Shown here: piece after piece, positions 12,340 to 32,000 of the stretch
How positions within the stretch are numbered: position 1 is the stretch's first letter
Layout of the letters: every line of letters begins with the position of its first letter
Assembly (NCBI GenBank): GCA_963699255.1
Contig: OY969425.1
Span: forward strand, 150,001 to 182,000
Length of the DNA stretch: 32,000 nt
Reading direction: 5' to 3'
Source: an uncultured bacterium
GTDB taxonomy: Bacteria; Margulisbacteria; WOR-1; CAVSGV01
The notes under the pieces: model-generated
What the model was told of the DNA's origin: nothing
Databases searched by the model: none
The model's input: only the letters and a program-made list of their open reading frames with translations
Translations under genes and position numbers: made by a program

Positions 12340-12413
<74 letters not shown>

Positions 12414-15847: not shown

Positions 15848-18237
15848 AGCAAAAAGTTAAACTCGGAGTGAACATAGATCACGTTGCCACTTTGCGCCAG
15901 GCCAGGCTTGAGGGCTATCCTGATATCATCGAAGCGGCCAGGCTTGCCATTGCGGGCGGCGCCGACTCTATTGTCGCGCACCTTCGTGAGGACAGGCGCC
16001 ACATAAATGACGAAGATATTCGTTTAATAAGAAAGCTGAAAACCCACTTTGACCTTGAAATGGCTGCCACGGACGAAATGCTGAAGATAGCTTTGAGGGT
16101 CAAACCCGATATGGCGACAATAGTGCCTGAAAAAAGGCAGGAGCTTACTACCGAAGGCGGCCTTGATGTTAAAGGGAACCTCCCGAGGCTGACGGAATAT
16201 GCAAGAAAGCTCGAGGGTGCCGGCATAAGGGTAAGCCTTTTTGTCGATCCGATCGAGGATCAAATAAGAGCGTCTTCACGCACAGGAGCATCCTTTATTG
16301 AGCTCCACACAGGAGCTTACTCCCGTTCTTACTCAAAGAAGGACCTTAACGATGTCGCCAGCTCTGTTATTCTTGCAAAAGATCTGGGTCTCAGGGTGAA
16401 TGCCGGGCACGGCCTGAATTATGATAATGCGGCTCCTGTTGCAAAGCTTGACGGCATAGAGGAGCTGAACATCGGGTTCAGCATCATTGCCAGGAGCGTT
16501 TTTACGGGGCTGAAAAAAGCAACGGCAGACATGAAAAAGCTTTTATTGTTTTTTATAGTTTTTGTATCATTATGCGCGTGTTCATATTCGGCAACAAAAG
16601 AAGCTGTTCCGACACCGAAGATTGCAAAGACGCCGACGGTCGAAACTGCCGTATCGCCCTCTACGCCGGAAGCGGTCCCCGATTGGCTTAAGAGTCTCGG
16701 CGTGTCCACTAAAGCCTCAACCCTCGAACCTGGACAGAACACGGGTATGGCAAAGACGCCGACGGTCGAAACTACCGCATCGCCCTCTACGCCGGAAGCG
16801 GTCCCCGATTGGCTTAAGGATCTTGGCGTGTCCGTTAAGGCTTCAACCCTTGAAAGTACTCCTCCTCCGGAAAAAGAGAAACCTGTCTTCAGTGATGTTC
16901 CTCCGGATCACTGGGCGGCGCATTCAGTGAACAGCCTGGTGAAGATGGGGATCACGCAGGGTTATCCCGACGGCACTTTCAGGGGAGGCAACTACATATC
17001 AAGGTATGAGGCCGCGGTCTTCCTGTCTAAAATGGCTCACGCGGGGCAGGAGAAAGCTGCCGCCGATGAAAAACTCGTTGAGGAATTAAGGGCTGAGATC
17101 TACAAGATAAGGTATACTCTGGACCTGTACAAGAGGCCGCCTGAAAAGAAGACGCCCGTTTCCGCGACTTTTTATGCAAGGACCATAGTTGGAAATATCG
17201 TCTCAGCCAATTCCGCATCTTCCGCGATCAATGCGCCGCTGGGCCCGGTGTTCGACTACAGGCTGCAGGCCTCATACAAGCAGGAATTCGATGAGGACAC
17301 GTTCGTCAGGATAGGAATGGATACCATGGACTCGGCAAGGTCGGGCGGAAGGGATCTTGTGAAGGAAATGCTCGAGGGCGAGGCGCAGGCGATGACCAAG
17401 TCGGGGTTTGGAGTCAACGTGACCAGCGGTCCGGGGCTTGTGATACACAGAGAAGGCCCGGACAATATTTTCCCTTCCGAGGATTACACGGTATATGTAA
17501 GGCCTAATAACGGGATAAAGCTTTTTTATGAGAACGGGGAGCTTGACACGGGAATAGGATATAAGGCGACCACCGTTGCTACTGACGGGGCAGCAGGCGT
17601 GAACGATGCTTACGCATATGTTGCCTACAGTTTCAATAACACTTTCGTGGGAGATCTCACCGTTAAGTATTCGGCGGATCTTTTCAATAATGATCTGAGG
17701 GCGACTTATTCGACAGCAGAGTCGACCATAAATATGTATGAAATGGATATCGTTCCCAGTAAACAGCTTGAATTCGGGTTGAAATTAGGCGCTTCCTCAA
17801 GCCAGCAAACCTCGCATAATATTTTTGCGGGAATAAGCGTCATAACAAAAGACCTGATACGCAGCGGAAGCGCCATTAAATTGTTCGCGAACAAGATAGG
17901 CAGTGATTTCTTTGGCTACCCGGTTTATCCGGCGATAACCGGGGTCAATCTGTTCAATAAACTTTACCAGCCATCCACGTATGACATCGGGATGGAAATT
18001 TCCCAGGTTGTATCCAGGGCTCTTTCGCTTAAAATGATAGGCGATGTCGTTACGGGCCCCACCGGGCTGTACGGCGAGGATGAACCAAGCTCAAATGCCA
18101 CGTTCGAGCTCGACATGGATTACGGCCTGTTCGAAGGAGGTACCCTGAATTTCGGGTACAGGACATACCAGAACCCGAGTGCGACCGAAAATGCGACATC
18201 AGATATGCTAATGCTCGGTTTCAGGTATAATATTTAG
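15844..18237 (+). CDS. pdxJ: pyridoxine 5'-phosphate synthase (aa 1-~235) continuing, with no stop codon, into an SLH-domain / coiled-coil / beta-barrel (OmpM-type) protein
   Basis: 797-aa uninterrupted ORF. The N-terminal 230 aa carry PdxJ hallmarks (LGVNIDHVATLRQAR, HLREDRRHI, EMAAT, PEKRQELTTEGGLDV, NAGHGLNY, ELNIGFSII). From aa 230 comes a signal-peptide-like MKKLLLFFIVFVSLCAC. Confidence 0.8.
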   Translation: MKQKVKLGVNIDHVATLRQARLEGYPDIIEAARLAIAGGADSIVAHLREDRRHINDEDIRLIRKLKTHFDLEMAATDEMLKIALRVKPDMATIVPEKRQELTTEGGLDVKGNLPRLTEYARKLEGAGIRVSLFVDPIEDQIRASSRTGASFIELHTGAYSRSYSKKDLNDVASSVILAKDLGLRVNAGHGLNYDNAAPVAKLDGIEELNIGFSIIARSVFTGLKKATADMKKLLLFFIVFVSLCACSYSATKEAVPTPKIAKTPTVETAVSPSTPEAVPDWLKSLGVSTKASTLEPGQNTGMAKTPTVETTASPSTPEAVPDWLKDLGVSVKASTLESTPPPEKEKPVFSDVPPDHWAAHSVNSLVKMGITQGYPDGTFRGGNYISRYEAAVFLSKMAHAGQEKAAADEKLVEELRAEIYKIRYTLDLYKRPPEKKTPVSATFYARTIVGNIVSANSASSAINAPLGPVFDYRLQASYKQEFDEDTFVRIGMDTMDSARSGGRDLVKEMLEGEAQAMTKSGFGVNVTSGPGLVIHREGPDNIFPSEDYTVYVRPNNGIKLFYENGELDTGIGYKATTVATDGAAGVNDAYAYVAYSFNNTFVGDLTVKYSADLFNNDLRATYSTAESTINMYEMDIVPSKQLEFGLKLGASSSQQTSHNIFAGISVITKDLIRSGSAIKLFANKIGSDFFGYPVYPAITGVNLFNKLYQPSTYDIGMEISQVVSRALSLKMIGDVVTGPTGLYGEDEPSSNATFELDMDYGLFEGGTLNFGYRTYQNPSATENATSDMLMLGFRYNI
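16531..18237 (+). other. OmpM-like outer-membrane protein portion: signal/lipobox-like peptide, 2 x 42-aa repeat, SLH domain (16888-17034), short coiled coil, C-terminal beta-barrel-like region
   Basis: In-frame ATG at 16531. SLH-type sequence: FSDVPPDHWAAHSVNSLVKMGITQGYPDGTFRGGNYISRYEAAVFLSKM. The C-terminal ~360 aa show alternating hydrophobic/aromatic strand-like patterns and end with LMLGFRYNI. Confidence 0.6.
16624..16855 (+). repeat. tandem direct repeat, 2 x 126 bp (42 aa: AKTPTVET.ASPSTPEAVPDWLK.LGVS.KASTLE)
   Basis: Unit 1 starts at 16624 and unit 2 at 16750. Nucleotide identity by eye is high. Confidence 0.9.
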
Positions 18238-18811: not shown

Positions 18812-19909
18812 ATGAAAGCATTTATACTTGCTGCCGGGTATGGCAAGAGATTAGAGCCTCTTACGAAGGCGATACCCAAGCCGATGGTCCCCGTGGCTAA
18901 CAAGCCCATCATGCAGTATAACATCGAGCTTCTGAGGAAATACGGAATAAAGGACATTGCCGCGAATATCCACTATTTCCCGGAGCAGGTGGAGAATTAT
19001 CTGGGGGACGGCAGCTCCTTCGGCGTCAACCTGAAGTATTCCTACGAGGAGGAGCTTCTTGGCACCGCGGGCGGGGTGGGGCGCATGTCACGGCACTCCA
19101 GGATTGACGGGACTTTCATCGTGATAGCCTCCGACATTTTAACTGATGTCAATATAAGCAGGCTGATCGCGTACCATAAGAGGAAGAAAGCGGTCGCGAC
19201 CATAGCGCTGACGCCGGTGGAAGATGTGACGCAGTTCGGCGTTGTCATGCTTGATGAGAGCGACAGGATCACGGGATTCCATGAAAAGCCCTCAAGAGAA
19301 GAGGCAAAGAGCGATCTTGTGAATACCGGGGTTTATATCTTTGAGCCTGAGATCCTGGACATGATACCCGAAGATAAAGCATCGGACTTCGGCAGGGAGA
19401 TCTTCCCGCGGCTGGTTTCCGACAAGGCCCCTTTTTACGGGTACAGGATGATAGAGTACTGGAGCGATATCGGGGGGATAGAAAAGCTGAAATCCGCCAA
19501 CTCGGATATTCTTCAGGGAAGGGTAAGGGCGGAGGTTTCCGCGAGGCGGGTCGGCACATCCACCTGGCTTGGAAAGGGGACCCGGGTCGCCAGAAGCGCT
19601 AAATTTGACGGGACGATCATTTTGGGGGACAAGAGCGTCATCGGTGAGAATGTTGAAGTGTTCGGCAATGTTTCCGTGGGCGACAACTGCGTCATAGAGG
19701 ATGGAAGCATAATCTCAGATTCAGTTATCTGGTCTGATACCCGCGTCGGCAAAAGATCCAGGCTCAATAAATGTCTTATAGGGAGCTGGTGCCGACTGGA
19801 AGATGATGTGCGGATAGAGGAAGGATGCGTTATAAGCAACAGATGCCGGGTCAGGCAGGGCAAAAAACTTGAACATGACACGAAAGTTGAGCCCGATAGA
19901 ACTATATAG
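18812..19909 (+). CDS. sugar-1-phosphate nucleotidylyltransferase with a C-terminal left-handed beta-helix (ManC/GCD1-like)
   Basis: 365 aa with the N-terminal ILAAGYGKRLEPLT nucleotidyltransferase motif and hexapeptide-like repeats in the C-terminal ~110 aa. Substrate not assignable. Confidence 0.75.
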   Translation: MKAFILAAGYGKRLEPLTKAIPKPMVPVANKPIMQYNIELLRKYGIKDIAANIHYFPEQVENYLGDGSSFGVNLKYSYEEELLGTAGGVGRMSRHSRIDGTFIVIASDILTDVNISRLIAYHKRKKAVATIALTPVEDVTQFGVVMLDESDRITGFHEKPSREEAKSDLVNTGVYIFEPEILDMIPEDKASDFGREIFPRLVSDKAPFYGYRMIEYWSDIGGIEKLKSANSDILQGRVRAEVSARRVGTSTWLGKGTRVARSAKFDGTIILGDKSVIGENVEVFGNVSVGDNCVIEDGSIISDSVIWSDTRVGKRSRLNKCLIGSWCRLEDDVRIEEGCVISNRCRVRQGKKLEHDTKVEPDRTI

Positions 19910-19977
19910 CTTACGGCTGACTGCTCACAGCTAACGGCTAAAAGCCGTGTGCTGTAGCCGCAGGGCGTGCCGTAAGC
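19909..19977. terminator. nested hairpin element directly after the nucleotidyltransferase stop
   Basis: The outer stem GCTTACGGC (19909-19917) / GCCGTAAGC (19969-19977) encloses an inner hairpin ACGGCT-AAA-AGCCGT (~19934-19948). There is no U-tract. Confidence 0.35.
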
Positions 19978-19991
19978 TGTCAGCTAAATCT

Positions 19992-20026
19992 CATGCAAGT
20001 TTTTCGCAAGTTATCCCGATAATATG
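19992..20026 (+). promoter_or_regulatory. sigma-28-like promoter copy 1 (CATGCAAGTTTT-N13-CGATAATATG)
   Basis: The exact 12-mer is shared with the copies at 22250, 31176 and 31768, with identical 13-nt spacing. The box starts 126 nt upstream of the ATG at 20143. Confidence 0.55.
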
Positions 20027-20096
20027 TCCGTAGGAGAAGGTGTGTCAGCCCTGGAGTAATGGGGCTGCATATTTCAGGGTCAGCGATGAAGCGGCA

Positions 20097-20130
20097 TGAA
20101 ATCTTTTCTGGATTTTGACGATATATATAG
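20097..20130 (+). promoter_or_regulatory. degenerate sigma-28-like promoter (TGAAATCTT-N13-CGATATATATAG)
   Basis: The -10-like box matches the giant gene's copy exactly over 12 nt (CGATATATATAG), with the same spacing. The box starts 24 nt before ATG 20143. Confidence 0.4.
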
Positions 20131-20142
20131 AGAGGGAGAAAT

Positions 20143-20481
20143 ATGAGCATAGTTCCGATGAACCAAAGTACAAGTAAATTTGACCCGTTGTCACAAGCCG
20201 GGATTGATTATTTTAATGCCAGGAAAGCTCAGTCAAAAGCATTGCAGGACGGCATCGCCGGCGCGCTTGACATAGCGAGGATAGCTACACCGGGACCGAA
20301 TGTTAATACCAGGAACGATTACACTGGCAGCCAGGACCCGGCTACGGCTATAATCAGGTTTTTATATAAGTTGGGGGTTTTCGGAGGCGAGGATCTACCA
20401 GGCACGCAGGTTTATTCGACCGATGCGGGCAGTTCGCAAGGATATGCAACGCCAAAACCCAAAATTGATACTGAGAGATGA
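20143..20481 (+). CDS. hypothetical 112-aa protein
   Basis: ORF with RBS GGGAG. No signal peptide or TM segment, and no family recognised. Confidence 0.55.
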   Translation: MSIVPMNQSTSKFDPLSQAGIDYFNARKAQSKALQDGIAGALDIARIATPGPNVNTRNDYTGSQDPATAIIRFLYKLGVFGGEDLPGTQVYSTDAGSSQGYATPKPKIDTER

Positions 20482-20497
20482 ACTTAGTGGAGCATAA

Positions 20498-20749
20498 ATG
20501 ACGACCGACATAATAATAGACCAGATAAGGACCCATTGGTGGATCCTGCTTTTTATAATATGCATGGTTTCATATTTTGTTTATTCCTTTATTAAGGAAG
20601 CCATGGAGCTTAAGGCGGTAAAAGACAGGAAGAAGGCGCTTGAAAAGGAACTGGACGGCTTGAAGGCTCAGTACAATGAAGAGGCGAAAAAGCTTGAAGG
20701 TAAAATGGAAGAACGGAAAAAATTCTATCGAGGGGGAAAAAGGCAGTGA
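20498..20749 (+). CDS. small single-pass membrane protein with a Lys/Glu-rich coiled-coil tail
   Basis: 83 aa with RBS GTGGAG. A hydrophobic segment (HWWILLFIICMVSYFVYSFI) is followed by KEAMELKAVKDRKKALEKELDGLKAQYNEEAKKLEGKMEERKK. Its stop overlaps the next gene's GTG (GTGA). Confidence 0.55.
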   Translation: MTTDIIIDQIRTHWWILLFIICMVSYFVYSFIKEAMELKAVKDRKKALEKELDGLKAQYNEEAKKLEGKMEERKKFYRGGKRQ

Positions 20750-22146
20750 GCGGCGAACTTCAACCGGTAGTGAGCAATAATCCTAACGGGACCAATTTGG
20801 GGAATACCGCCATTCCTGATAACCAATTTGATCCGAATGATCTTGTGGATTTTGCCAATCTGAAAAAGCAAATAGACGGCAATAAGGACGGAATTAGCCT
20901 TACAACTCTGAAGACCTTTCAAAGCCTGGATAAAGTGACACAAAAGTTGAAGGAGGAATTTAAAGGGCTTGGTATTGGCGAGAGTGAAATTCATGCATGG
21001 CTTGCAAAAATGATCACGAAGCAGCTGGCTGATCCGGGATCGTATCCGCTGAATCCCTCTGATTTCAATATACTTAAATGGGTTAAGATAGGGCGGAGGG
21101 AGGTTCGCGCGCTGGTAAATTCGGTACGTAACGACCTCAGCTTTTTCCAGAAAATAACCAGTACTCTTTCCGTTCATAAGGTGACCCGCGCCGCGTTCCA
21201 TGAATTATTCGTCATGAACGAAAATGATACCGCTCCCATTGACGGCTCAAAAGACCTGTTCCATGAATTATTCCACAGGGAGACCGTTGACCTTGATCAC
21301 TTCAAGACCACACTTGAAGATGAGGTGTTCCCTTTTGCCCAATCCGTATCTCCCCGCAACGCGCTCTCAAGGACGCTGCGGCTTCTGTCCGCAAGAAGGT
21401 TCATCATGATCGATTCAAACCACATGTCGGATTGCGTTAAAACAGCGTTGTATAATCTGGCACTGTCAAGGATCGAGAAAGAATTTCCTCCCGCACAGGA
21501 CAAAGATAAGCCGGATAACGCGAAGACCAGGAAAGACCTGCTGAAAGAGATCGCCGACTATCTTAACGGAAAGAAAGACGGTGAAAACAACGATATTTTC
21601 GATGTTTTGGGGATCACGCAGAGGCCTCCGGAGAAATTACCCCCGAAGAAACTTGATCCGAACTGCAGGGCGCAGGAACTGCATGATAAATATTTTAGCG
21701 GAGTGGAAGGATCGGCCCTGGTCGAGTCTATTGGTTATGCGTATTTCACGGGTCTCGCATCGGGCAAAACCGGCGTAAAAGATGTTTTTTCTTCGGCCGG
21801 GCTGAACACCATATGGGGGAGGCTTGTTCGTGATCTTGAACTGAAGGGCGGGAGCGAAATGGAATTCAACAGGAAGATCAAGAACCATTACGAAAAACAG
21901 GGAGAAGCTATGGATCATATGGTCACATCGCTCCTTGACGACTACGGATTGATGGATAACCCCGCTGACGGCGAAACGGATCCAGTCCAGGCGTGGAGCG
22001 GCAACGAGAAAATAATTGATATCGGCCCTTCCCACGAGACCCCGTTCTATCCGTGGGTCAACTGGGTAGTAAAGCATCCTGATGAGGTCGGCAAAAAGGA
22101 TATTGCGACGCCGCCCAAACCGACGGAGCAAGGGATACCTGAATAA
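20746..22146 (+). CDS. hypothetical 466-aa protein with a single HExxH motif
   Basis: Long ORF with a GTG start coupled to the upstream stop. HELFH lies at aa 173-177 (nt 21262-21276). No signal peptide and no family recognised. Confidence 0.6.
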   Translation: MSGELQPVVSNNPNGTNLGNTAIPDNQFDPNDLVDFANLKKQIDGNKDGISLTTLKTFQSLDKVTQKLKEEFKGLGIGESEIHAWLAKMITKQLADPGSYPLNPSDFNILKWVKIGRREVRALVNSVRNDLSFFQKITSTLSVHKVTRAAFHELFVMNENDTAPIDGSKDLFHELFHRETVDLDHFKTTLEDEVFPFAQSVSPRNALSRTLRLLSARRFIMIDSNHMSDCVKTALYNLALSRIEKEFPPAQDKDKPDNAKTRKDLLKEIADYLNGKKDGENNDIFDVLGITQRPPEKLPPKKLDPNCRAQELHDKYFSGVEGSALVESIGYAYFTGLASGKTGVKDVFSSAGLNTIWGRLVRDLELKGGSEMEFNRKIKNHYEKQGEAMDHMVTSLLDDYGLMDNPADGETDPVQAWSGNEKIIDIGPSHETPFYPWVNWVVKHPDEVGKKDIATPPKPTEQGIPE

Positions 22147-22162
22147 CAGTTAGCCGCAAGTA

Positions 22163-22192
22163 AACCGGTATAACTTCTCCGGGCGTTTTTTT
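22163..22192 (+). terminator. weak stem followed by a T7 run after the 466-aa gene
   Basis: CCGG...CCGG short stem, then GCGTTTTTTT (T-run 22186-22192). The stem is poor. Confidence 0.3.
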
Positions 22193-22249
22193 GAGTATTA
22201 CTTCTTACGCATTTTAAGCCTTTTTTAGCCCTATTTTTCTTATAAAACC

Positions 22250-22286
22250 CATGCAAGTTTTCCCCTGTTCTCCCCGATATATATAG
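22250..22286 (+). promoter_or_regulatory. sigma-28-like promoter copy 2 (CATGCAAGTTTT-N13-CGATATATATAG) of the giant gene
   Basis: Exact 12-mer with 13-nt spacing. The box starts 29 nt before ATG 22304, and RBS GGGGAG lies between them. Confidence 0.6.
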
Positions 22287-22303
22287 TGTAAAGGGGAGAC
22301 AAA

Positions 22304-25300
22304 ATGCCGGAAATAAACATACAACAAGTTACCGATATTCCTCAAACCGACGCCACCAGCGATGTTGCTGGCGGCGCTGATGTTTCCGCGGCCTATATAG
22401 CTTCCGACGTACAGACCGCCCCAGATGTGAACGCGTCCATCGGCATTGACAGCGTAGCGGTCTCGTCCGGCGTTTCCACATCTCAGGTTGGCGTTGGCGG
22501 CGCTGTTGAGCAGGAAGAATCCTCAAATTACATCCAGAGCGATGTTGAGACGGCTTCACAATCCGGTCAGCTCGAATATGACATGAACTCCCTTGCGAAA
22601 ATAAATGACTCCTACAAATACATCGATCCAACCGCTTCCGGGATACAGTCGATACTGGCCAATCTATATGCGAACGGGACCATAAACAGCGGCATGTCCG
22701 AGGAAGAAGTCGTTCTTGCCATTAACACATACGTTTTCAGCAATTACTCGTACATAGCTGATACGGGTGATACCTGGAATTCCGTTTCGCAGACCATAAA
22801 GAACGGGGGAGGCGACTGCGAGGACTTCGCGAACCTGGCAGCCAGCCTGATGACAGCCGCATTATTGGACAGAGGACTTAGCCAGGAAGAAATAAACAAA
22901 AAGATCGATTGTGTTGTTGTTGCCGATCCCAACACCGGGTTGGGCCACGTTTATGTGCAGTATACCGGCGATGATGGCTCCATAAAATATCTGGACCCTG
23001 TTTCTGCAAGGGTAACGACTTCAATAGACAGCTCCAAGGTCGTTCTCTTCAGCTACAGCGATGAGAACGTGGATGTCATTGATGAAAACTTCGATTTCTC
23101 AAGGCTTGACACGGCCAGTTACACGATTCCGGCGGACACCGCCACCTATATCCAGGTCCTCCCTGGTGAGTTCCAGAATTACTGGGAGTCGCTGCTGGGC
23201 ATGGAGGACTCCGCGGCCCACGACAATGCCATCGGAATTTACCAGTCGTTACAGGACCTTATTAACGCAGTTAATGCGAAATACGGCAGCTGGGACAACG
23301 GCGTGACCACGACGGCTGATCTGGATACGATCAATGCTTTTCTTGCTAAACTGGATAGCAATTATATTCAGGACTATGATACGGTAGTTAAGCCGTTCCA
23401 GGACCAGTATGAGGCGATATTGACCAAGCTCGGCGTGGACACATCTCCATATAACCCGGACGCAACCGCATATTCTACCGCAATGCTCAATTATTTTACT
23501 ACCATGAATACATATATATTCGCTTATTGCTGGCACACAACAACTTATAAAGAATGGAGCCAGAGCGGCAAAACAATGAACGGCGTATCGGATGACCTTA
23601 TAGCTATCGAATATTTGAAGAACGGCATTTCGACCCTTGAAGATTTTAAAGCCAAGCATCATGACCAGATAATAGAGACCGCGGCTGACCCTACAAAGGG
23701 AACGGCCGAGGTGGATTGGTCAAACGATTATATATATGACAACATTTACTTTAAAAATCCCAACGGCGGAAATGTATGCACCGTGAGGCAGGGTTTAGCG
23801 GCCATTCAGGCGTATGTTTCGTATGTTGACGCGACCAAAACATGGAACTTCATGTCCCTTGCATATCCCGGAGAAGCCCGCGTGGCCAAATATTGCGGGT
23901 ATGCGGACAAATACCACACCAGCTTTAAAACGACCAATGATTATCTGGCATCCATCACCAGCTTCCTGGAACAGGCGGAGTACGGTGTGGGGGTGCTGGA
24001 CAAGGATCTGGAGGAGTTGGACAGCGCGATAGATGTAATAAATGCCGATGCGACCGTTACCGACGACCAGACCAATTATAATTCCGCTGATGCAAAGTTC
24101 AACAACTGTACCGATGCTGCGGCAAATGATGCTGTAAACCTTTATTGGAATGGCGAAGCAGATTATCTCACTTCAGGAAACCCCGACAACAGTCTGTTAC
24201 AGGTCACTGATGAGAAGACGAGAAATGCAAACCTGGAAGCTCTTTATAAACAGGCCAGCTCTTATGACCAGGGCCAGATGTATGCGGGTTCAAACCAGGC
24301 GGATGTTGAAGCGGCCCTGGAATATTATGTTGAATTCAAGACTGCAGACAAGGCTCTGACGGAGGCGAAAACAACACAGGCCACCTTAAGGGCTGACTTC
24401 AAGGCGATGTACAAGAACGCGGATGGCAGTGAAATGTCCGACGCGGACCTTGACAATGTTCTGAACGACTATCAATCCGAATATATGAGCAAAGATACCG
24501 ACCCCTCAAGCACCACTTATGGCTACTGGGAGATCAATCAGGATGCATCGCTGTTCACCGAAAAGATAAAAGAAGCGAGCATGTTGAAAGGGTACCTGAC
24601 CGGAATATCTCTTATATATGAGGCAAGGAGGGACCTGAGAAAACTGGTCGAGGAAGAACTGGAGGGGGAAGGCGACGACTACAAGGCGATGGAGATAAAC
24701 AAGCTGTTCATGAAAAAGGTGAACAAGCTGACGGAATATATCCAGCAGACGATCGTTGATGTGTTGTCGGCAATAAACTCCCTTGACCAGGCCAAGTATG
24801 ATCAGGATGTAAGCGACATAAACACAAAATATGATAAAAAGGCGGAAGAAATAAAGAAGAACGACGCGCTCAAGTGGTATCAGTTCTGCGAGGACGACAA
24901 CACGCAAGAGGATCTCCTTAAAAATGACGATGCGAGGTATGGCGAAATCAACGCTGCGGATGATAAGTTCAAGGCGGTAAAAGAAAAACAACTGAACATC
25001 GTCAAGCACCTGCTGTCGGAGACCGGAATGACGGTTTCGGGGACAACGGGAGATGAAATATGGGCTTCCATAAATAAACAGATTAACACTTCGCTGGACA
25101 ATATGGATAATTACAGCCGCGCCACGCTTAACACGAGCGATGACTCCCAATACCGCGAAGTGGACAGAAATCTGGTAAGTTCTGAGAGGGCAAGCCTGCT
25201 GGGCGTCTTCGGTATTCAAAGGATGATACTTATAGCAAGGCAGGCGGGAAGCGACATGAGGAACCTTGTTCATCAGGAGATGACGGGGATCGGCGGCAGG

Positions 25301-28300
25301 CAGTCAAGAACGGATGTTGCTGCAGATATGGTTTCGGCCGACTCCAATATGGTGATGACCTGGTTCGATGAAGCGGTGAGCGACATAGAAACAATAACGA
25401 ACCTCGGCAACCAGATCAGGTATAACGAGATACAGATAGAGAAGAACCAAAAGCTGATCGAGAAGATAGATTCGCAGAAATCGAAAAGATTATGGGGGCA
25501 TATTTTTGAGGCACTTGCCTTTGTGGCGGCGGTCGTCGCGATATGGGTCCCTATAGTCGCGGTCGTCGCGATCGCGTTTGGCGTTGTTTCGGCTGTTTTG
25601 AAGGCGTCCGCAAATAAAGCGGTGGCGGATGAGAAAGCAAAACTGGAAAAAGACTATAGCTACCAGGTGATAAAGCCGACGGATCCGGTCTTTGAAAAGA
25701 AGCTCAATGCGATGAGCGGGTTAACGGACGAACAAAAGAAAGAGATACTGCAGAATTATGATCCGAACTCGACGACATTTAAGGGTAATTTGGATAAGGT
25801 CAGCGGCTTAAGCGCGGAGCAGAAGGATGAAATATTGAACGCGGCTGATCCGAGCCGGGCAGCCTATGAGAAGACCATTAATGCCGACACTTCCTTAACT
25901 GAAAAACAAAAAGAAGCTCTAATTAACGCGTATGACCCGAATGAAGAGATCTTTAAAAAGAACCTGGCGAATCTCAACGCGTCCACCTCGGCCCCGTGGT
26001 ATGAGTTCTGGAAAAGCGACACGCCGGGATTGGGGTTAAGCGACTCCCAGATCACCATGATAACCGACGCGTATGAAGGGAATACCTTCATGCTCAGTAT
26101 TGATTCTAGTACTATATTAACCGAAGCTCAAAAGAAAGAGATAAGGAATGCATATGATAAGGACAGGGTGACTTTTGAATCGAATTTAGACAGCCTTGGT
26201 TTAAGCGATGACCAGATAAGCGCGGTAATGAAGGCATATGATGAGCAGACTGACAATTCGGCGAACGATAAGAATTATTCAGATGATAATATCATCAATA
26301 CGGCGTTGAATTCAGATAACTCGACGCAGGACATACTTTGGAACATGAACGATGCCAACTATCTGTCCTTTATGAATGACGGGCACGCAGGCTCATACGC
26401 GGGATCATCTGCGTTTAACACGGTCAAGTTCGCGAGCACCCTGGAGAACATAAAGGCCAATGACCTGATCGTCATGGTCGCCGAATCTTGCAGGGAGACG
26501 ATGGCCGAGATGAGGAACCTGGTGCATGAGGAAATGACCTCTATCGGGGGAAGGTCGCCGTCAAGCATGGTAACGGCCACGATGGAAGCGGCCAGAGGTC
26601 AGGAAGCTTTCATCGCGAATGAAATGTACATGAAGCTGTGGGACATGAACACCTCGAACAATCAAAGGTTCGAGAGGGACCAGAAGCTGAGGCTCTATCA
26701 GCAAATGGCAGATGAGGCGGATGTGACCTTTGGTCTGAGCTTTATCCCTATTGTCGGAGGGCCGGTGGGGGATTTTTATTCGAACCTGAGCGGTATGAAG
26801 GATCAGAGGAACCAGCTGGAGGAGACAAGCAATGAAAAATTTGATGCAAATCCCGACCTGGAAGAAGCGGATCTTAACGCTTTAGTCGAGGATGGTCTGA
26901 TAAATACGGGGAATGACACAAAAGGGGTTAATTATGAGAAAGTATCCAATGCTCGAACCGCGGTCGCAAAGGAATTCATAAAGGAAAGCGTTGAAGCGAC
27001 GATAAAGAAGACCCTGCATGAGCTAAGAAGCATCGCTCACATGGAAATGACGAATATCCAGAGCAGCACGGGCACGGATTTTGCCAGCCAGGCTAATATC
27101 GTGAACTTCACGTCGGCACTGGAGACCATTTCACTTGTCACCCAATACCTTACCCAGAAGGCGGAGATAATGAACAGGGTCACCGAGGCGAACCAGAGCA
27201 TCTCAAAGCTGAACAAGCAGATCACAAACTATGAGATCGGGGGAGGGATAGCCCTGGCGGTCGCGATCGTGGTATCTGTTTTCATGCCCGGCGGGTTTGA
27301 CTCTGTTCTGGCCGCTCTTGATACCCTTCAACTTGCTTCCTCCGTTGGCAGTTTTGTTCTCGGGGTATTCAGCACTATAAACGCGTGGATCGAAGCGAAA
27401 TTCGCAGCTCAGCTGGCAAAGGACGACATGGGCGATGTCGCCGAATACCTGGAGATACAGGACATGAACAATGAGAACATCGATTCCACCCAGAACAGGC
27501 TGGAGGCTCTTGAACAGAACAGCATAAATGAAATAAACGCGAGCCTGCTTCAGGACCTTGGCTCCGGATACATAGGAGTGAACAAGGCGCTTTCGTCAGA
27601 GTTTAAGACCTTAATAGAACAGCTTTACAGGGCAGAGAGAAGTCAATCGGAGATCCAGCAGACCCTTGAGGCGTTAAGGAATACCGTGCACGAGGCAATG
27701 ACCGGAATATCCGGCGTGTCCAGCAACGCGACCATGTCTATTCTTGACATGAAGGAAAAGGCAATAAAGGCGAAGATAGACGACATGTTCAGCAAGCTTG
27801 AAGAGGTGGCGACCAGGTGGAACCAGATCTCGGATGCCCAGAGAGCGGCGGAAAAAGCCAGAATGCAGGCATGGACGACCACTCTCAGCACCATTATACA
27901 GGGCATCATAATTGCGATATCGCTTTATAGCGCGTTCGGTAAGGAGCCGGCGGCGAAAGATAAAGTTGATGCGGCGCAAAATGACGTGGATAGTGCACAG
28001 ACCCCTGATGAATTAGATGCGGCGGAAGGTGAGCTTCGTGATGCCCAAGCCGACTATCAAGCCCTTCAAAGCAGGGTCGCGCTATACACCAATGTTTGCC
28101 TCCCCGCGGCGGAGATCCTGATCAAGCTGGCTATGGCCTTTATAGAAAAAGATGAAATGCAAGGCGTTCAAAAGACAAGGGAAGAGGAAGTATCGAATGC
28201 GGGGGTCACGAAGGTTACGAAGGACGCAGGCGAGACGGTGAAAGAGGGCGTTGCGGGAGCCGGCCTTAATGGGTTTGCGGCGAGGGGCCAGGCGGTAGCC

Positions 28301-30166
28301 GGACAGCGTGAGGTGGACAATCAGGCAGCCACATACGCCCTGAAGAGCGACGAGATCGAGGATGATTTTAGGACGAATCTATACAACGTTGAAATGGACA
28401 CCGTGGACTATGCTAAGGGGCTTACGAAGGAGCTGGCAAGAATGTGGAAGAACAGGAGAACAGAGGCTTACCAGAACACGCAGAGCTTCGCGAAGCAATT
28501 GGAGTCGATGAAATTGAGCAAGGCTCAGATGGACGCGCTTAACCAGGCATTTAAGAGCGACAGCGCTGAAGAATTCTTGAAGCAGCTGGCGTCAATAAAC
28601 GGGTTGAGCGATGCCCAGGTGAACGCGATAGAGCAAGCTTATGATAATTGCAAGCATGTTTCCGCCCTTGGCTCCTTTAAGGAAAGAATGGATGCATCAG
28701 CTGCGGTAGGGAAATTGGATCCGGCACAGAAGAAAGCGGTAATTGATGCGGCTAATAGCAGCACAAGCGTTAAAGACTTTGCGAAGAAATTGAACGCGAT
28801 ACAGGGATTAAGCTCTACTCAGAAGGACGCGTTAATTAACGCATTCGATCCGAAAATGAAGACCTTTGCGGACAAGATCGACGCGTCGCTGACGCTGAAT
28901 AATGATGATAAAAAGAGCGCGGTAAAGAATGCCTATGACCCGAACGTTAAGACCTGTATCAATAATGTATTAGCAATATCATCCCTGACCGATGCTGAAA
29001 AACTGACGGCGCTGCAGGCCATTGATCCGAAGATAAGTTCTTTTATAGACAATATGGGTCCGGCAGTGACCGATACCCAGAAGCTGTCCATAATGAAACA
29101 GTTCGATCCGAACGAGGTGGCTTTTAAGAAGAACGTTGATTCAATGGATGATATAACTCCGGTCCAAAAGAAGGATGTCATGAAGGCATTTCACATGGCA
29201 GTGATAGATAACAAAGACATAAAAAATCTGACCGATGCGGATAAGATAAAATCGATACAGGGCTTAAATCCGGCAATGAAGCATAAGATGGTCAAAGCTG
29301 TATATGACGCCCAGCATAAGGTCAGTCAGGCGAAAGATCTGATCAACCAAGCGAAGCAGCTGCCTTCCATCAATCAGGTGACGGGCGCCGGCACACAGGC
29401 GCAGTCCCAGGCGATCTCGACGCCGCCGGTGGCCCCGCAGGGAAAACAGTCAGCGAACACCTCCAATACACAGGCTATGCTGGATAAGCTCCTGAGCAGT
29501 TTTGATAAGAACATGCAGGAATTAAATGGTTTACAATCTCAGGTTGATAAGCTTAATGCCCAGACGACGGAAAAGCTGGACCCGAAAGAATTGTTGAAAA
29601 TACTTCAGCAGCAGTTGAAGGATGCGGGCGCGAAGATCGCCAACGAAAAGAAATTAATCGACACCATGAAGCAGGAGGTTGCAAAGACCCAGACAGCTCT
29701 TGCCACACAGGAACAGAACGTGCAAGAGGAAAGAGATAAACTTGTTAAAGCTATAAAGAAAGTGGATGATCAGATAAAAAAACTTGGTGAACTGGCCGCA
29801 AGATCCCCCGAGAATAAGAAGGTCATTGAAAATCAGTTGAACCAGTTGAATGACCAGCTTGAAGAAATGATGACATTATATAAATCGACGCAAGAAATGT
29901 ACGGTATTGCCCTGGGGACGGAAAAAGCCCTGGAGAATGAAATAAAGGATAAGGAAGGCAAGGTGGAGATACTTAAAGCGGAAGTTGTCAAGATCAAGGC
30001 GGATATAAACAATATACAGAAAGAGATCCTGGCGAAGAAAGCCGGCGGGGACAATAAGAATACGGCCAGCATCAATATCCAGACGCCGAAGATCACTTCA
30101 GAGACGCCAATGTTCAGCACAGGCGCTCCAACAGCCCCCAAAAAACAATACGCCTATACAGCATAG
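22304..30166 (+). CDS. giant (2620 aa) multi-module membrane-associated coiled-coil protein with an N-terminal transglutaminase-like cysteine-peptidase core; function unknown
   Basis: 7.86 kb frame with no stop, and a good RBS and promoter motif. Predicted features come from reading the translation. Hydrophobic segments lie at aa 1067-1099, 1645-1665, 1677-1696 and 1857-1879. Internal repeats and a C-terminal heptad-rich region (~aa 2390-2580) are also present. Confidence 0.85.
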   Translation: MPEINIQQVTDIPQTDATSDVAGGADVSAAYIASDVQTAPDVNASIGIDSVAVSSGVSTSQVGVGGAVEQEESSNYIQSDVETASQSGQLEYDMNSLAKINDSYKYIDPTASGIQSILANLYANGTINSGMSEEEVVLAINTYVFSNYSYIADTGDTWNSVSQTIKNGGGDCEDFANLAASLMTAALLDRGLSQEEINKKIDCVVVADPNTGLGHVYVQYTGDDGSIKYLDPVSARVTTSIDSSKVVLFSYSDENVDVIDENFDFSRLDTASYTIPADTATYIQVLPGEFQNYWESLLGMEDSAAHDNAIGIYQSLQDLINAVNAKYGSWDNGVTTTADLDTINAFLAKLDSNYIQDYDTVVKPFQDQYEAILTKLGVDTSPYNPDATAYSTAMLNYFTTMNTYIFAYCWHTTTYKEWSQSGKTMNGVSDDLIAIEYLKNGISTLEDFKAKHHDQIIETAADPTKGTAEVDWSNDYIYDNIYFKNPNGGNVCTVRQGLAAIQAYVSYVDATKTWNFMSLAYPGEARVAKYCGYADKYHTSFKTTNDYLASITSFLEQAEYGVGVLDKDLEELDSAIDVINADATVTDDQTNYNSADAKFNNCTDAAANDAVNLYWNGEADYLTSGNPDNSLLQVTDEKTRNANLEALYKQASSYDQGQMYAGSNQADVEAALEYYVEFKTADKALTEAKTTQATLRADFKAMYKNADGSEMSDADLDNVLNDYQSEYMSKDTDPSSTTYGYWEINQDASLFTEKIKEASMLKGYLTGISLIYEARRDLRKLVEEELEGEGDDYKAMEINKLFMKKVNKLTEYIQQTIVDVLSAINSLDQAKYDQDVSDINTKYDKKAEEIKKNDALKWYQFCEDDNTQEDLLKNDDARYGEINAADDKFKAVKEKQLNIVKHLLSETGMTVSGTTGDEIWASINKQINTSLDNMDNYSRATLNTSDDSQYREVDRNLVSSERASLLGVFGIQRMILIARQAGSDMRNLVHQEMTGIGGRQSRTDVAADMVSADSNMVMTWFDEAVSDIETITNLGNQIRYNEIQIEKNQKLIEKIDSQKSKRLWGHIFEALAFVAAVVAIWVPIVAVVAIAFGVVSAVLKASANKAVADEKAKLEKDYSYQVIKPTDPVFEKKLNAMSGLTDEQKKEILQNYDPNSTTFKGNLDKVSGLSAEQKDEILNAADPSRAAYEKTINADTSLTEKQKEALINAYDPNEEIFKKNLANLNASTSAPWYEFWKSDTPGLGLSDSQITMITDAYEGNTFMLSIDSSTILTEAQKKEIRNAYDKDRVTFESNLDSLGLSDDQISAVMKAYDEQTDNSANDKNYSDDNIINTALNSDNSTQDILWNMNDANYLSFMNDGHAGSYAGSSAFNTVKFASTLENIKANDLIVMVAESCRETMAEMRNLVHEEMTSIGGRSPSSMVTATMEAARGQEAFIANEMYMKLWDMNTSNNQRFERDQKLRLYQQMADEADVTFGLSFIPIVGGPVGDFYSNLSGMKDQRNQLEETSNEKFDANPDLEEADLNALVEDGLINTGNDTKGVNYEKVSNARTAVAKEFIKESVEATIKKTLHELRSIAHMEMTNIQSSTGTDFASQANIVNFTSALETISLVTQYLTQKAEIMNRVTEANQSISKLNKQITNYEIGGGIALAVAIVVSVFMPGGFDSVLAALDTLQLASSVGSFVLGVFSTINAWIEAKFAAQLAKDDMGDVAEYLEIQDMNNENIDSTQNRLEALEQNSINEINASLLQDLGSGYIGVNKALSSEFKTLIEQLYRAERSQSEIQQTLEALRNTVHEAMTGISGVSSNATMSILDMKEKAIKAKIDDMFSKLEEVATRWNQISDAQRAAEKARMQAWTTTLSTIIQGIIIAISLYSAFGKEPAAKDKVDAAQNDVDSAQTPDELDAAEGELRDAQADYQALQSRVALYTNVCLPAAEILIKLAMAFIEKDEMQGVQKTREEEVSNAGVTKVTKDAGETVKEGVAGAGLNGFAARGQAVAGQREVDNQAATYALKSDEIEDDFRTNLYNVEMDTVDYAKGLTKELARMWKNRRTEAYQNTQSFAKQLESMKLSKAQMDALNQAFKSDSAEEFLKQLASINGLSDAQVNAIEQAYDNCKHVSALGSFKERMDASAAVGKLDPAQKKAVIDAANSSTSVKDFAKKLNAIQGLSSTQKDALINAFDPKMKTFADKIDASLTLNNDDKKSAVKNAYDPNVKTCINNVLAISSLTDAEKLTALQAIDPKISSFIDNMGPAVTDTQKLSIMKQFDPNEVAFKKNVDSMDDITPVQKKDVMKAFHMAVIDNKDIKNLTDADKIKSIQGLNPAMKHKMVKAVYDAQHKVSQAKDLINQAKQLPSINQVTGAGTQAQSQAISTPPVAPQGKQSANTSNTQAMLDKLLSSFDKNMQELNGLQSQVDKLNAQTTEKLDPKELLKILQQQLKDAGAKIANEKKLIDTMKQEVAKTQTALATQEQNVQEERDKLVKAIKKVDDQIKKLGELAARSPENKKVIENQLNQLNDQLEEMMTLYKSTQEMYGIALGTEKALENEIKDKEGKVEILKAEVVKIKADINNIQKEILAKKAGGDNKNTASINIQTPKITSETPMFSTGAPTAPKKQYAYTA
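22630..23030 (+). other. transglutaminase-like / BTLCP-like Cys-His-Asp core within the giant ORF
   Basis: DTWNSVSQTIKNGGGDCEDFANLAASL (Cys172, nt 22817-22819), GLGHVYVQY (His215, nt 22946-22948) and KYLDPV (Asp231, nt 22994-22996). Order and spacing fit the transglutaminase-like protease fold. Confidence 0.55.
25693..26250 (+). repeat. protein-level repeat array A (~6 units of ~28-30 aa, consensus gLSxxQKxxIxNAYDPNxxxFxxNL)
   Basis: Example units: MSGLTDEQKKEILQNYDPNSTTFKGNLDKV / SGLSAEQKDEILNAADPSRAAYEKTINAD / TSLTEKQKEALINAYDPNEEIFKKNLANL / TILTEAQKKEIRNAYDKDRVTFESNLDS. Confidence 0.8.
28487..29320 (+). repeat. protein-level repeat array B (~9 units of the same repeat family as array A)
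   Basis: Example units: QGLSSTQKDALINAFDPKMKTFADKIDAS / LTLNNDDKKSAVKNAYDPNVKTCINNVLAI / SSLTDAEKLTALQAIDPKISSFIDNMGPA / VTDTQKLSIMKQFDPNEVAFKKNVDSM. Confidence 0.8.
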
Positions 30167-30321
30167 GCCTGCAACCGCGAACATCAGCATTGTCTATCTC
30201 TTTAGGACCTGCAACAGAATCACGGCAATCGTCGGTATCTAGTGTCGGCTCCACATGACAGATTGCCGATGAACCATACATATAATATGATCTCTTTTTG
30301 TGTTAAAATCCTGGATCAGCA

Positions 30322-31020
30322 ATGGGCAGAGTATTGACATATATTTATTCGGTGATCTTTTGGGCATATCTTCTGCTCTTCTTCACACTGGTGCCGCTCT
30401 TCGCCCTGCCGTTCTCCTTGATATTCGGGCTGAAGCGGTCTTTCAGGACTTTTTTCAAGATATTCGTCAAATTCGGGCTGTTCATTTTAGGCTGTTTTCC
30501 GTCCGTTGAGGGGCTTGAGAACATGCCCCGGGGCAAAAATGTCATCCTTGTATCAAATCACCCCAGCTTCATGGACCCGTTCCTTCTTAACGCGGCCCTG
30601 CCCGGGTTCTACAATTTCATAGTTTCAGCCAGATTGCTTGATAATCCTTATTCAATGGTGGCAATAAGGGGCGCAGGCCTTGTGGTGAAGCGCTACGGAC
30701 ATTCCCTGTATGGTTCAAGCGCGATGATCAGGACCGTGAAAGCCATAAATGCCGGCGACTCGTTCATTCTGTTCCCGTCCGAGCGCGCCATTCTAGGAGG
30801 CCGCATCGATAAGATAAACCCCGGCTTTTATAAGGTGATTGAGGATGCGAGTGCAGTCATCCTGCCTGTGTTCATCAAGCAGGAAATAAGGTTCACATTT
30901 ATACGGAAGCCGTTCAAGGCAAAAGTGGTCATCGGAAAGCCGCTGGATAAACATAATGTACTATATGTAAGAGACAACGCCATTAAACAGGCAGTAGAAT
31001 TTCTAGGGCAACAAGTGTAA
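30322..31020 (+). CDS. lysophospholipid/1-acylglycerol-3-phosphate acyltransferase family (LPLAT, PlsC-like)
   Basis: 232 aa. The hydrophobic N-terminus is followed by the HX4D motif NHPSFMD. FPSER stands in the place of the usual FPEGTR block. Confidence 0.65.
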   Translation: MGRVLTYIYSVIFWAYLLLFFTLVPLFALPFSLIFGLKRSFRTFFKIFVKFGLFILGCFPSVEGLENMPRGKNVILVSNHPSFMDPFLLNAALPGFYNFIVSARLLDNPYSMVAIRGAGLVVKRYGHSLYGSSAMIRTVKAINAGDSFILFPSERAILGGRIDKINPGFYKVIEDASAVILPVFIKQEIRFTFIRKPFKAKVVIGKPLDKHNVLYVRDNAIKQAVEFLGQQV

Positions 31021-31067
31021 CCCGCCTGTGTCTAAAACCCCTTCTGTCCCTCGTTAATGCTCGGGAC

Positions 31068-31125
31068 ATCTCCCCCTTAGTAAGGGGGAGATACAGAGGG
31101 GGTTATTAAGCCCTCTTATTCTTAT
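31068..31125 (+). terminator. two consecutive hairpins followed by T-rich sequence after the acyltransferase gene
   Basis: ATCTCCCCCTTA-G-TAAGGGGGAGAT (31068-31092, 12-bp arms), then AGAGGG-N10-CCCTCT (31095-31116), then tattcttatttat. Confidence 0.45.
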
Positions 31126-31175
31126 TTATCCGCCTTATGCCGTTTGCTGAAAGCCTTATTCTACAAGCTAAATCC

Positions 31176-31212
31176 CATGCAAGTTTTACCCCTCTTCTTA
31201 CGAATAATACAG
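31176..31212 (+). promoter_or_regulatory. sigma-28-like promoter copy 3 (CATGCAAGTTTT-N13-CGAATAATACAG)
   Basis: Exact 12-mer with 13-nt spacing. The box starts 27 nt before ATG 31228. Confidence 0.55.
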
Positions 31213-31227
31213 TGTAGGGGAGCTAAG

Positions 31228-31428
31228 ATGCCACAAAACGAAACTAATGGTGTACAACAGTCTCAAAATAAGCAACAGGAAAATCCTGCTGCGAAGAAAG
31301 TTATGGCAAATCAACCAAACAGAATGGCGAAGCCATCCGATGAGAGGTCGGATCAGCCGGACCTGAACATTACCGCACGGGTGGAACTTGAAGGCATGAA
31401 GCCGCCCATTGCCAACTGTATTGTCTGA
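31228..31428 (+). CDS. hypothetical 66-aa Gln/Asn/Pro-rich (probably disordered) protein
   Basis: ATG 31228 is preceded by GGGGAG, and I prefer it to the tracked TTG start at 31144 because the promoter motif lies at 31176. Sequence: MPQNETNGVQQSQNKQQENPAAKK... Confidence 0.45.
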   Translation: MPQNETNGVQQSQNKQQENPAAKKVMANQPNRMAKPSDERSDQPDLNITARVELEGMKPPIANCIV

Positions 31429-31442
31429 GGAGCACAAAAGCA

Positions 31443-31763
31443 ATGAACGCGATAACCGGCATAAATAAACAGATAAACCCCAACCAGGGTGTTGGGGTAA
31501 ATCCGACAACACAGCCCCAGAAGAGCGAGGGCAAAACGAATAATTCAGGCATAAATTTTAACAATGTATTTGAGATCGTGAGAAGGAGCCTTGACGGGGT
31601 TATGGTGGTGGCGGAGAACAACAGGACGGGCGGCGCTGATTTCAGGAAGGAAAAGCTGGAGATAGAGGAAAAGAGGAAGTTCAAGACCGACCTTGAAGAA
31701 GCCCAGGAGATACTGAACCAGATAGCAAAGGTCATGGAAAAGCACGGCAAAGCTGTAAAGTAA
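31443..31763 (+). CDS. hypothetical 106-aa protein (polar N-terminal half, charged helical C-terminal half)
   Basis: ORF with RBS GAGGAG, 14 nt after the previous stop. No family recognised. Confidence 0.5.
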   Translation: MNAITGINKQINPNQGVGVNPTTQPQKSEGKTNNSGINFNNVFEIVRRSLDGVMVVAENNRTGGADFRKEKLEIEEKRKFKTDLEEAQEILNQIAKVMEKHGKAVK

Positions 31764-31767
31764 AATC

Positions 31768-31804
31768 GCATGCAAGTTTTGTGCCGGTCGTTACGATAGA
31801 TATA
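31768..31804 (+). promoter_or_regulatory. sigma-28-like promoter copy 4 (CATGCAAGTTTT-N13-CGATAGATATAG)
   Basis: Exact 12-mer with 13-nt spacing. The box starts 51 nt before ATG 31844. Confidence 0.55.
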
Positions 31805-31843
31805 GTGGAAGACAAAATTATAAAAATAAGGAGGTGAAATAAT

Positions 31844-32000
31844 ATGAGTTACGGAGCAGAATACGCGACCAAGAAAACGGGGGAAAATATATTAGACAAT
31901 GCTCTTACAGTGGCAGGTGACGGAGTCGATGACATCGCGCACGTTTTGGCCGATGTTGAAGCGAACGGCGGTAAGATCAATAACGGCAACGGCCAGTCAG
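31844..32000 (+). CDS. hypothetical protein, 5' part only (runs off the window)
   Basis: My own translation: a strong RBS AAGGAGGTG sits 7 nt upstream of the ATG, followed by MSYGAEYATKKTGENILDNALTVAGDGVDDIAHVLADVEANGGKINNGNGQS with no stop before the window end. It is not in the supplied track. Confidence 0.5.
   Translation, partial: MSYGAEYATKKTGENILDNALTVAGDGVDDIAHVLADVEANGGKINNGNGQS

Follow-up and report, generated by a model that had tools for sequence, protein, structure and literature searches.

Introduction

Class 3 flagellar genes of E. coli, Salmonella and Pseudomonas are transcribed from sigma-28 (FliA/RpoF) promoters of the form TAAAGTTT-N11-GCCGATAA. Promoters of this type also occur in the chlamydiae, a nonflagellated lineage, in which a small set of stage-specific genes is served by sigma-28 late promoters, such as that of hctB, with the canonical elements TAAAGwww and GCCGATAA. 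In this study, we analyzed a stretch of 32,000 nucleotides from an uncultured Margulisbacteria bacterium of the WOR-1 lineage (assembly GCA_963699255.1, contig OY969425.1, positions 150,001 to 182,000 of the forward strand; hereafter, the window), the right-hand part of which is a gene island in which several transcription units are preceded by copies of a bipartite motif, TGCAAGTTTT-N13-CGATAA. This motif is real and is conserved, at syntenic positions, across the uncultivated phylum Margulisbacteria, a phylum different from that of the chlamydiae, and its -35-like half differs from the canonical elements of the chlamydial sites. The sequence statistics and comparative data reported below support well the interpretation that it is a promoter.

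The published flagellar consensus consists of a -35 element TAAA and a -10 element GCCGATAA (PMC8325347), and in the open complex of the P. aeruginosa fliC promoter the two elements lie at (-36)TCTAAAG(-30) and (-15)GCCGATAA(-8) (PMC12784957). WhiG, which retains a flagellar type of promoter specificity, governs sporulation in Streptomyces and type IV pili in Rubrobacter (PMC8325347), so that neither promoters of the sigma-28 type nor their recruitment for programmes other than flagellar ones are new. In Synechocystis, a member of the sister phylum, SigF, a sigma factor of group 3, reads TAGGC (-32) and GGTAA (-12) (PMC2532724). As for the Margulisbacteria, flagellins have been reported in some members, in low proportion (PMC7018530), and homologues of FlgV, a protein co-conserved with sigma-28, are also reported for some (PMC11607428); the literature that we found on motility and sigma factors in the phylum consisted of passing mentions only, and the FlgV supplements contained no Margulis entry. 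New in the present work are a variant consensus with conservation across an uncultivated phylum, together with a regulon in which almost all proteins lack known families.

Results

Copies of the Motif in the Window

The exact 12-mer CATGCAAGTTTT occurs four times in the 32-kb window, at 19992, 22250, 31176 and 31769, in each case on the + strand and in an intergenic region, as compared with about 0.004 copies expected by chance for a given 12-mer in 64 kb of two-strand sequence (simple arithmetic). The four near-identical copies reported in a preliminary description, which was made from the letters of the window alone, are thus confirmed, with the last one starting at 31769 and not at 31768. 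A fifth exact copy was found about 900 nt past the right edge of the window, at position 1840 of L001, a 3.3-kb public Logan contig that overlaps the right end of the window. The left 20 kb of the window, which contains housekeeping genes (for a TldD/PmbA-type protein, phosphate acetyltransferase, shikimate kinase, dehydroquinate synthase, tyrosyl-tRNA synthetase, IspF, PdxJ, RpiB and an NTP-transferase), has no copy.

Downstream of each of the four window copies, there is a non-conserved spacer of constantly 13 nt, as had been described, followed by CGA(T/A)A. Conservation was seen on both sides of these elements: (C)TAAAnnn stands before CATGC in all copies, and an A/T-rich run leads to a TG whose last base lies 14 nt beyond the C of CGA. 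The CGAWA box is separated from the next Shine-Dalgarno-led start codon by 123, 26, 24 and 47 nt at the four sites, respectively, in line with the 24–126 nt given in the preliminary description. A degenerate additional copy, placed there at 20097, was borne out in part. Its -10/start half differs very little from the corresponding half at 22250, whereas its -35 half is weaker than described, with 7 of 10 matches to TGCAAGTTTT, and these only with a spacer of 12 nt instead of 13 nt. We refer to the site at 19992 and this degenerate site as P1 and P2; the coordinates of all promoters and genes of the island are given in Table 1.

Table 1. Features of the island in the window and a sigma factor gene in a related locus.
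Feature	Position	Strand	Details
Promoter P1 of the island	19986..20030	+	A-tract 19986-19988; -35-like CATGCAAGTTTT 19992-20003; -10-like CGATAA 20017-20022; predicted +1 G 20030
Degenerate promoter P2	20095..20132	+	Directly 5' of the first island gene; weak -35 TGAAATCTTT; perfect -10/start CGATATATATAGAG 20119-20132; predicted +1 20132
First transcription unit	20143..22146	+	112 aa (20143-20481), 83 aa (20498-20749), 466 aa (20746-22146); no significant Pfam match
Promoter of the giant gene	22244..22288	+	A-tract 22244-22246; CATGCAAGTTTT 22250-22261; CGATAT 22275-22280; predicted +1 G 22288
Giant protein, 2620 aa	22304..30166	+	N-terminal transglutaminase-like core, residues 123-185; no other recognised domain
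Acyltransferase (PF01553)	30322..31020	+	Inside the island, without motif; sigma-70-like TTGCCG-17-TATGAT at 30263-30291
Terminator-like hairpin and T-rich tail	31096..31117	+	After the acyltransferase gene, just 5' of the 31176 motif copy
Promoter of the 66-aa and 106-aa genes	31170..31214	+	A-tract 31170-31172; CATGCAAGTTTT 31176-31187; CGAATA 31201-31206; predicted +1 G 31214
66-aa and 106-aa proteins	31228-31428, 31443-31763	+	Served by the 31176 promoter
Promoter 5' of the 115-aa gene	31763..31807	+	A-tract 31763-31765; CATGCAAGTTTT 31769-31780; CGATAG 31794-31799; predicted +1 G 31807
115-aa protein, start	31844..32000	+	Complete in L001:770-1117
RpoD-like sigma gene	L052 5829-6581	-	250 aa as called; DLIQEGNIGLIRAVEKFD and TIRLPVHM motifs; immediately 5' of a giant-gene promoter

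Distribution across Genomes

A collection with one genome per GTDB species (596 Gb) was scanned with the pattern AAANNNCATGCAAGTTTT-N13-CGA. This gave 43 matches, where about 17 are expected by chance (arithmetic from 18 specified bases and 596 Gb). In about 29 of them, the pattern continues into CGATAATATAGTG-like sequence; these come from metagenome-assembled genomes (MAGs) or single-amplified genomes labelled Candidatus Margulisiibacteriota, Saganbacteria or WOR-1, or from unnamed MAGs. Chance appears to account for the other 14 (Flavobacterium, Colwellia, Acidobacteriaceae and others), which have nothing in common beyond the scan pattern. A metagenome scan added 76 further loci, which brought the total of the two scans to about 105; nearly all of these belong to Candidatus Margulisiibacteriota, Saganbacteria or WOR-1. 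The motif, which had been treated as a feature of one genome, is a feature conserved across a phylum. The distribution also places the source of the window in Margulisiibacteriota, within the Cyanobacteriota/Melainabacteria group.

Anatomy of the Motif

Sites were defined as TGCAAGTTT-N14-CGAWW, which gave 155 sites in the collected loci; the 119 unique ones were used for a profile. The consensus was aaaNNNcaTGCAAGTTTT-N13-CGATAa-(A/T)6-TG-nAAgg. Since the A-tract AAA and the CA before TGCAAG belonged to the scan patterns, their frequencies in the profile are inflated, and the core seen in non-seed sites was TGCAAGTTTT. The two halves are rigidly coupled. Among the 49 copies of TGCAAGTTT that had seeded no scan, CGA was found at exactly +23 in 41 (chance, about 1.6%), with TA next in 29 of these, and a relaxed search (RRGTTT, 13–15 nt, CGAWA) returned strong sites at one spacing only. 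A second GCAAGTT, 11 bp downstream and inside the spacer, was present in a subset of sites, including that at 19992 (at 20006-20012) and several in other genomes, some of which likewise follow an NTP-transferase gene; most sites lack it.

In the downstream half, the C and G of CGA were the best-conserved part. The positions just before it in the profile (21-22) were divided between C (0.43) and T (0.39), and then between A (0.45) and C (0.44). Further downstream, motif position 36 was G in 73% of the 119 sites and was preceded by T in 71%. The frequency of this G was 75% where the start codon was more than 60 nt away, so that it belongs to the promoter and not to a ribosome-binding site.

Placement Relative to Genes

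Long open reading frames (ORFs; 120 aa or more) take up 83% of the DNA, but only 10 of the 155 sites (6%) overlapped one; the other 94% lay outside them. A co-oriented ORF start led by a Shine-Dalgarno sequence was found within 100 nt of 113 sites (73%), as compared with 22% of random positions, and the median distance from box to start codon was about 47 nt. Rigidly coupled halves, a spacer of free sequence and intergenic sites co-oriented with downstream genes are how a bipartite promoter behaves, as the preliminary description had proposed, and from these data we infer that the sites are promoters.

None of the 25 sigma-70-like matches reported in 19800-32000 was at a motif site. The best sigma-70-type reading of the sites is AAGTTT/TA(A/T)(T/A)(A/T)(A/T), which does not give the hexamers of TTGACA-17-TATAAT at a spacing of 16–18 bp. 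The adjoining housekeeping genes and the acyltransferase gene inside the island are without the motif.

Comparison with Sigma-28 and Other Promoters

Like the sigma-28 promoters of E. coli, Salmonella and Pseudomonas, the sites are bipartite and have a spacer of free sequence and short leaders. When CGATAA is set at -13..-8, following the geometry of the P. aeruginosa fliC open complex (PMC12784957), the predicted start lies 8 nt after this core, on the conserved G at motif position 36. The -35-like half contains an invariant AAGTTT, and 6 of 8 of its bases match TAAAGTTT; the bases before AAGTTT are GC and not TA, and conservation reaches caTGCAAGTTTT. In terms of the octamer, the spacing is 12 (N16 in TAAA notation), fixed in all strong sites, which is within 11 ± 1 and one over the canonical value. 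The earlier claim of a sigma-28-like promoter was supported with regard to the geometry, which puts the predicted start on a conserved G, and to the CGATAA core, and was not supported with regard to the GC of GCCGATAA and to the -35 element, which is TGCAAGTTTT and not TAAAGTTT and is shifted upstream by one base.

The consensuses of sigma-54, of extracytoplasmic function sigma factors and of Bacillus sigma-B/F/G were compared by eye and fit worse than that of sigma-28. Cyanobacterial SigF is an alternative sigma factor of the sister phylum that controls surface and secreted proteins, with stringent promoter recognition (PMC2532724), in which it would resemble the present case. Neither TAGGC nor GGTAA occurs in the site profile, and these elements are unrelated to TGCAAGTTTT and CGATAA.

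A parallel at the level of the regulon is WhiG of Streptomyces and Rubrobacter, which also combines sigma-28-type specificity with a non-flagellar, lineage-specific regulon and has promoters clustered in one gene cluster. In contrast to the motif described here, WhiG promoters keep TAAA/GCCGATAA, and WhiG targets are recognizable (pil genes and genes for diguanylate cyclases and phosphodiesterases), whereas the targets in the present loci are without known family and no candidate for an anti-sigma factor (RsiG or FlgM) was identified among them.

Genes Downstream of the Sites

The island is syntenic in many loci. It is flanked by genes for a fusion of PdxJ with an S-layer-homology (SLH) domain, RpiB and an NTP-transferase. 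Downstream of a first site come genes for a small protein, for a short one that has a hydrophobic segment and for one of about 470–620 aa; a second site is followed by that for a giant protein, after which comes the acyltransferase gene; a third by genes for two small proteins; a fourth by that for a protein of 102–132 aa; a fifth by those for a protein of about 100 aa and three further families; and a sixth by that for a protein of about 800 aa. The acyltransferase gene is the only one in the island with a known housekeeping-type function. The giant gene is the most widely conserved (20 loci), and its homologues in 9 loci are preceded by the same promoter arrangement. In the first transcription unit, family fam12 is conserved in other loci, and the 83-aa protein, for which Pfam gave weak sub-threshold matches only, seems to consist of a hydrophobic segment and then a charged helix.

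Outside the island, the motif precedes other unknown proteins, several of which are very large or have signal peptides. The Pfam domains found among 72 representatives of the downstream families were TPR, transglutaminase, peptidase M15, EF-hand, Big_1 and BNR, once each. Ten more conserved neighbours gave one glycosyltransferase-TPR protein and one sub-threshold match to a putative metallopeptidase (E = 0.0018), and otherwise nothing in Pfam. We also observed a family of signal-peptide proteins of 320–650 aa, with an N-terminal motif G.GAR..(G/S)(L/M)G, 3' of sites in six loci (L005, L006, L029, L079, L103 and L112), and a Pfam search with one member gave no match. Judging from this family, the regulon may extend beyond the island to components of the cell envelope.

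The small conserved proteins of the island gave nothing significant in Pfam. In the family of the 115-aa protein (102–132 aa; loci L035, L045, L067, L076 and L084), the terminal helices are conserved and the C-terminus is almost invariant (DDLMQKISTKVQVAAQLLSAANN..KTASRILSQG), with its last 40 residues nearly identical, whereas the middle is hypervariable in sequence and variable in length. Among 5.8 billion sequences, 31 were close relatives of this family, and a profile search of 1.84 billion cluster representatives found 58, all of them small, which makes it an extremely narrow family. The AlphaFold model of the 115-aa protein is a long helical hairpin (pLDDT 75), and that of the 102-aa family is a helix, a beta-hairpin and a helix (pLDDT 73). 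When both models were compared with the PDB by Foldseek, every match had an E value of 1 or more, the best being prefoldin-beta and EsxA-like hairpins, and profile searches against PDB sequences gave weak matches only (E = 0.1–0.3; FliN/SpoA at E = 0.32 for the 102-aa family). By analogy, conserved ends around a variable middle may be compared with the way in which filament subunits vary (flagellins, Hrp pilins and needle proteins, for example). A resemblance of the small proteins to type III secretion needle proteins or to flagellin C-termini was considered and is unsupported by the Pfam, PDB profile and Foldseek searches.

The Leader between P1 and P2 and Other Features of the Window

The leader from P1 to the first island gene (20030-20142) contains, in addition to the degenerate P2, a mini-ORF of five codons that has a Shine-Dalgarno sequence to itself (GGAGAAGGTGTG TCA GCC CTG GAG TAA) and a 6-bp hairpin (CAGCCC..GGGCTG). 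In at least one related genome (L024), the equivalent first promoter stands directly before its gene; the leader in the window may therefore be a local duplication. An Rfam scan of the window matched only a tRNA, at 12340-12413 between panB and aroK (RF00005, 70.6 bits), so that none of the known RNA elements lies in the leader between P1 and P2.

A short repeat, GCCGT[AT][AG]GCTGT, was observed in both orientations at 19906-19980 of the window and at 1197-1215, 1369-1412 and 1803-1828 of L001. Three copies lie just 5' of the 19992 site, and six flank a 23S_rRNA_IVP/four-helix-bundle gene (L001:1437-1796) located between two transcription units of the island; at 19906-19980, the repeats are present without that gene. 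Repeats and gene together look like the footprint of a small inserted cassette.

In the left part of the window, the PdxJ-SLH ORF (15844-18237, 797 aa) combines a complete PdxJ domain (residues 6-233) and an S-layer-homology domain (349-391) with a long uncharacterized tail; its family recurs in 7 related loci, and hence the fusion is probably not an assembly artefact. A 267-aa ORF without Pfam match (6854-7657), located between divergent housekeeping genes, contains a unit of about 40 residues that is repeated in tandem (NRCRYDGIHKYMEDFRN..., twice).

Discussion

We consider it probable that an alternative sigma factor directs RNA polymerase to these promoters, and that this factor belongs to the sigma-28 (FliA/SigD/WhiG) class or has nearly the same DNA specificity. 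In such a promoter, the extended -35 element caTGCAAGTTTT at -38..-27 would presumably be read by sigma region 4 and the -10 element CGATAA at -13..-8 by regions 2 and 3, with the 13-nt spacer free in sequence and fixed in length. The A-tract at about -44..-42 is possibly a proximal UP-like contact, and an A/T-rich stretch would lead to initiation at TG, with the conserved G as the predicted +1. The motif would then mark a phylum-specific regulon in Margulisiibacteriota, including Saganbacteria/WOR-1, that comprises the island genes and scattered unknown genes, often large or with signal peptides.

Several observations weigh against this interpretation. The GC of the extended -10 element GCCGATAA is not conserved (positions 21-22); the -35 element TGCAAGTTTT has TGCAAG instead of TAAAG, that is, GC for TA; and it lies one base farther from the -10 element, across a spacer that is longer by one and rigid. 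Its conservation over 10–12 bp is longer than a typical region-4 contact, so that a second protein could bind there, and the A-tract was present in well under half of the listed non-seed sites (judged by reading, uncounted). No group-3 sigma factor was found by two regular expressions for sigma region 2 among the six-frame ORFs of 121 collected sequences (782 kb), which comprise the fetched loci. Within these loci, a single ORF of the sigma-70 family was found, on the metagenome contig L052, and it is RpoD-like, of the primary type (Table 1). In addition, none of the 72 downstream family representatives matched a flagellar, chemotaxis or pilus family of Pfam (E ≤ 0.001), and a flagellin signature expression gave no match in the same 782 kb. 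The preliminary description was thus correct that no gene served is recognizably flagellar or chemotactic, and the link to flagellin, hook-associated or chemotaxis genes that it had raised was not found. This non-flagellar gene set stands against the flagellins and FlgV reported in some Margulisbacteria (PMC7018530, PMC11607428). From those same reports, taken together with the linkage of FlgV to sigma-28, the presence of a FliA-type sigma factor in the phylum is plausible; for the genomes studied here, it is a candidate.

The deviations in the -35 element, the missing GC of GCCGATAA, the spacing increased by one and the lack of flagellar genes in the regulon would also be expected if the alternative sigma factor were a lineage-specific group-3 or divergent one, not orthologous to FliA, WhiG or SigD, with a specificity that merely resembles that of sigma-28. 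Group-3 sigma factors of the sister phylum differ much in specificity, as seen for Synechocystis SigF (PMC2532724), which adds to the case. However, the combination of AAGTTT with a CGATAA that is correctly spaced from a conserved start purine is closest to sigma-28 among all the consensuses compared (sigma-70 by a scan, SigF from the literature and the others by eye), and WhiG shows that the flagellar clade keeps its specificity on co-option (PMC8325347). We therefore regard a divergent factor as rather unlikely. The length of the conserved upstream half, 10–12 bp plus the A-tract, which exceeds a usual -35 element, would likewise suit an activator-dependent promoter, in which CATGCAAGTTTT is a transcription-factor site over the -35 region and the primary sigma factor uses GATAAT or GATATA as the -10 element. 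The subset of sites with a second GCAAGTT one helical turn downstream recalls the direct-repeat boxes of response regulators, and GATAAT at -12..-7 fits TATAAT in 5 of 6 positions and predicts the same start. On the other hand, a T at -7 was found in only 48% of sites, as compared with the strongly conserved C and G of CGA, which is the reverse of a primary-sigma -10 element, so that activation fits the data less well; moreover, the second repeat is missing from most sites and the sigma-70 scan gave no match at them. In our judgment, dependence on an activator is improbable.

The exact recurrence of a 12-mer in several copies, and the presence of the repeat GCCGT[AT][AG]GCTGT next to two sites, could also point to a dispersed repeat or the end of a mobile element without a role in transcription, or to chance recurrence. 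This explanation is effectively refuted. The spacer is free in sequence at a fixed spacing, there is no inverted partner, and the strand is always that of the downstream gene. The sites are excluded from coding sequence and are found phylum-wide at syntenic positions by rpiB and the NTP-transferase gene, and the island has the same GC content as its flanks.

A wider idea, which we put forward only as speculation and hold to be doubtful, is that a sigma-28-family regulon has been redeployed, phylum-wide, from flagella to an unrecognized cell-surface or secreted apparatus. Candidate parts would be the giant transglutaminase-domain protein and the small helical-hairpin proteins, which are without signal peptides. 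If this were true, the promoter would be a handle for listing all components of a new machine in any Margulisbacteria genome.

How transcription is regulated in candidate phyla without any cultured member is almost unknown. The motif TGCAAGTTTT-N13-CGATAA predicts a co-regulated gene set across a phylum that is sister to the Cyanobacteria, consisting almost entirely of proteins of no known family, namely giant proteins, small hypervariable helical proteins and a Pfam-negative signal-peptide family. What had been a list of hypothetical proteins thus becomes a unit open to testing, and a position weight matrix allows its members to be listed in any Margulisbacteria MAG. If flagellated members should use the motif for flagellin, it would mark an ordinary sigma-28 regulon with extra unknown members. 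If the sigma factor belongs to the FliA/WhiG clade, the regulon would be another, phylum-wide case of a flagellar sigma factor co-opted for a different programme.

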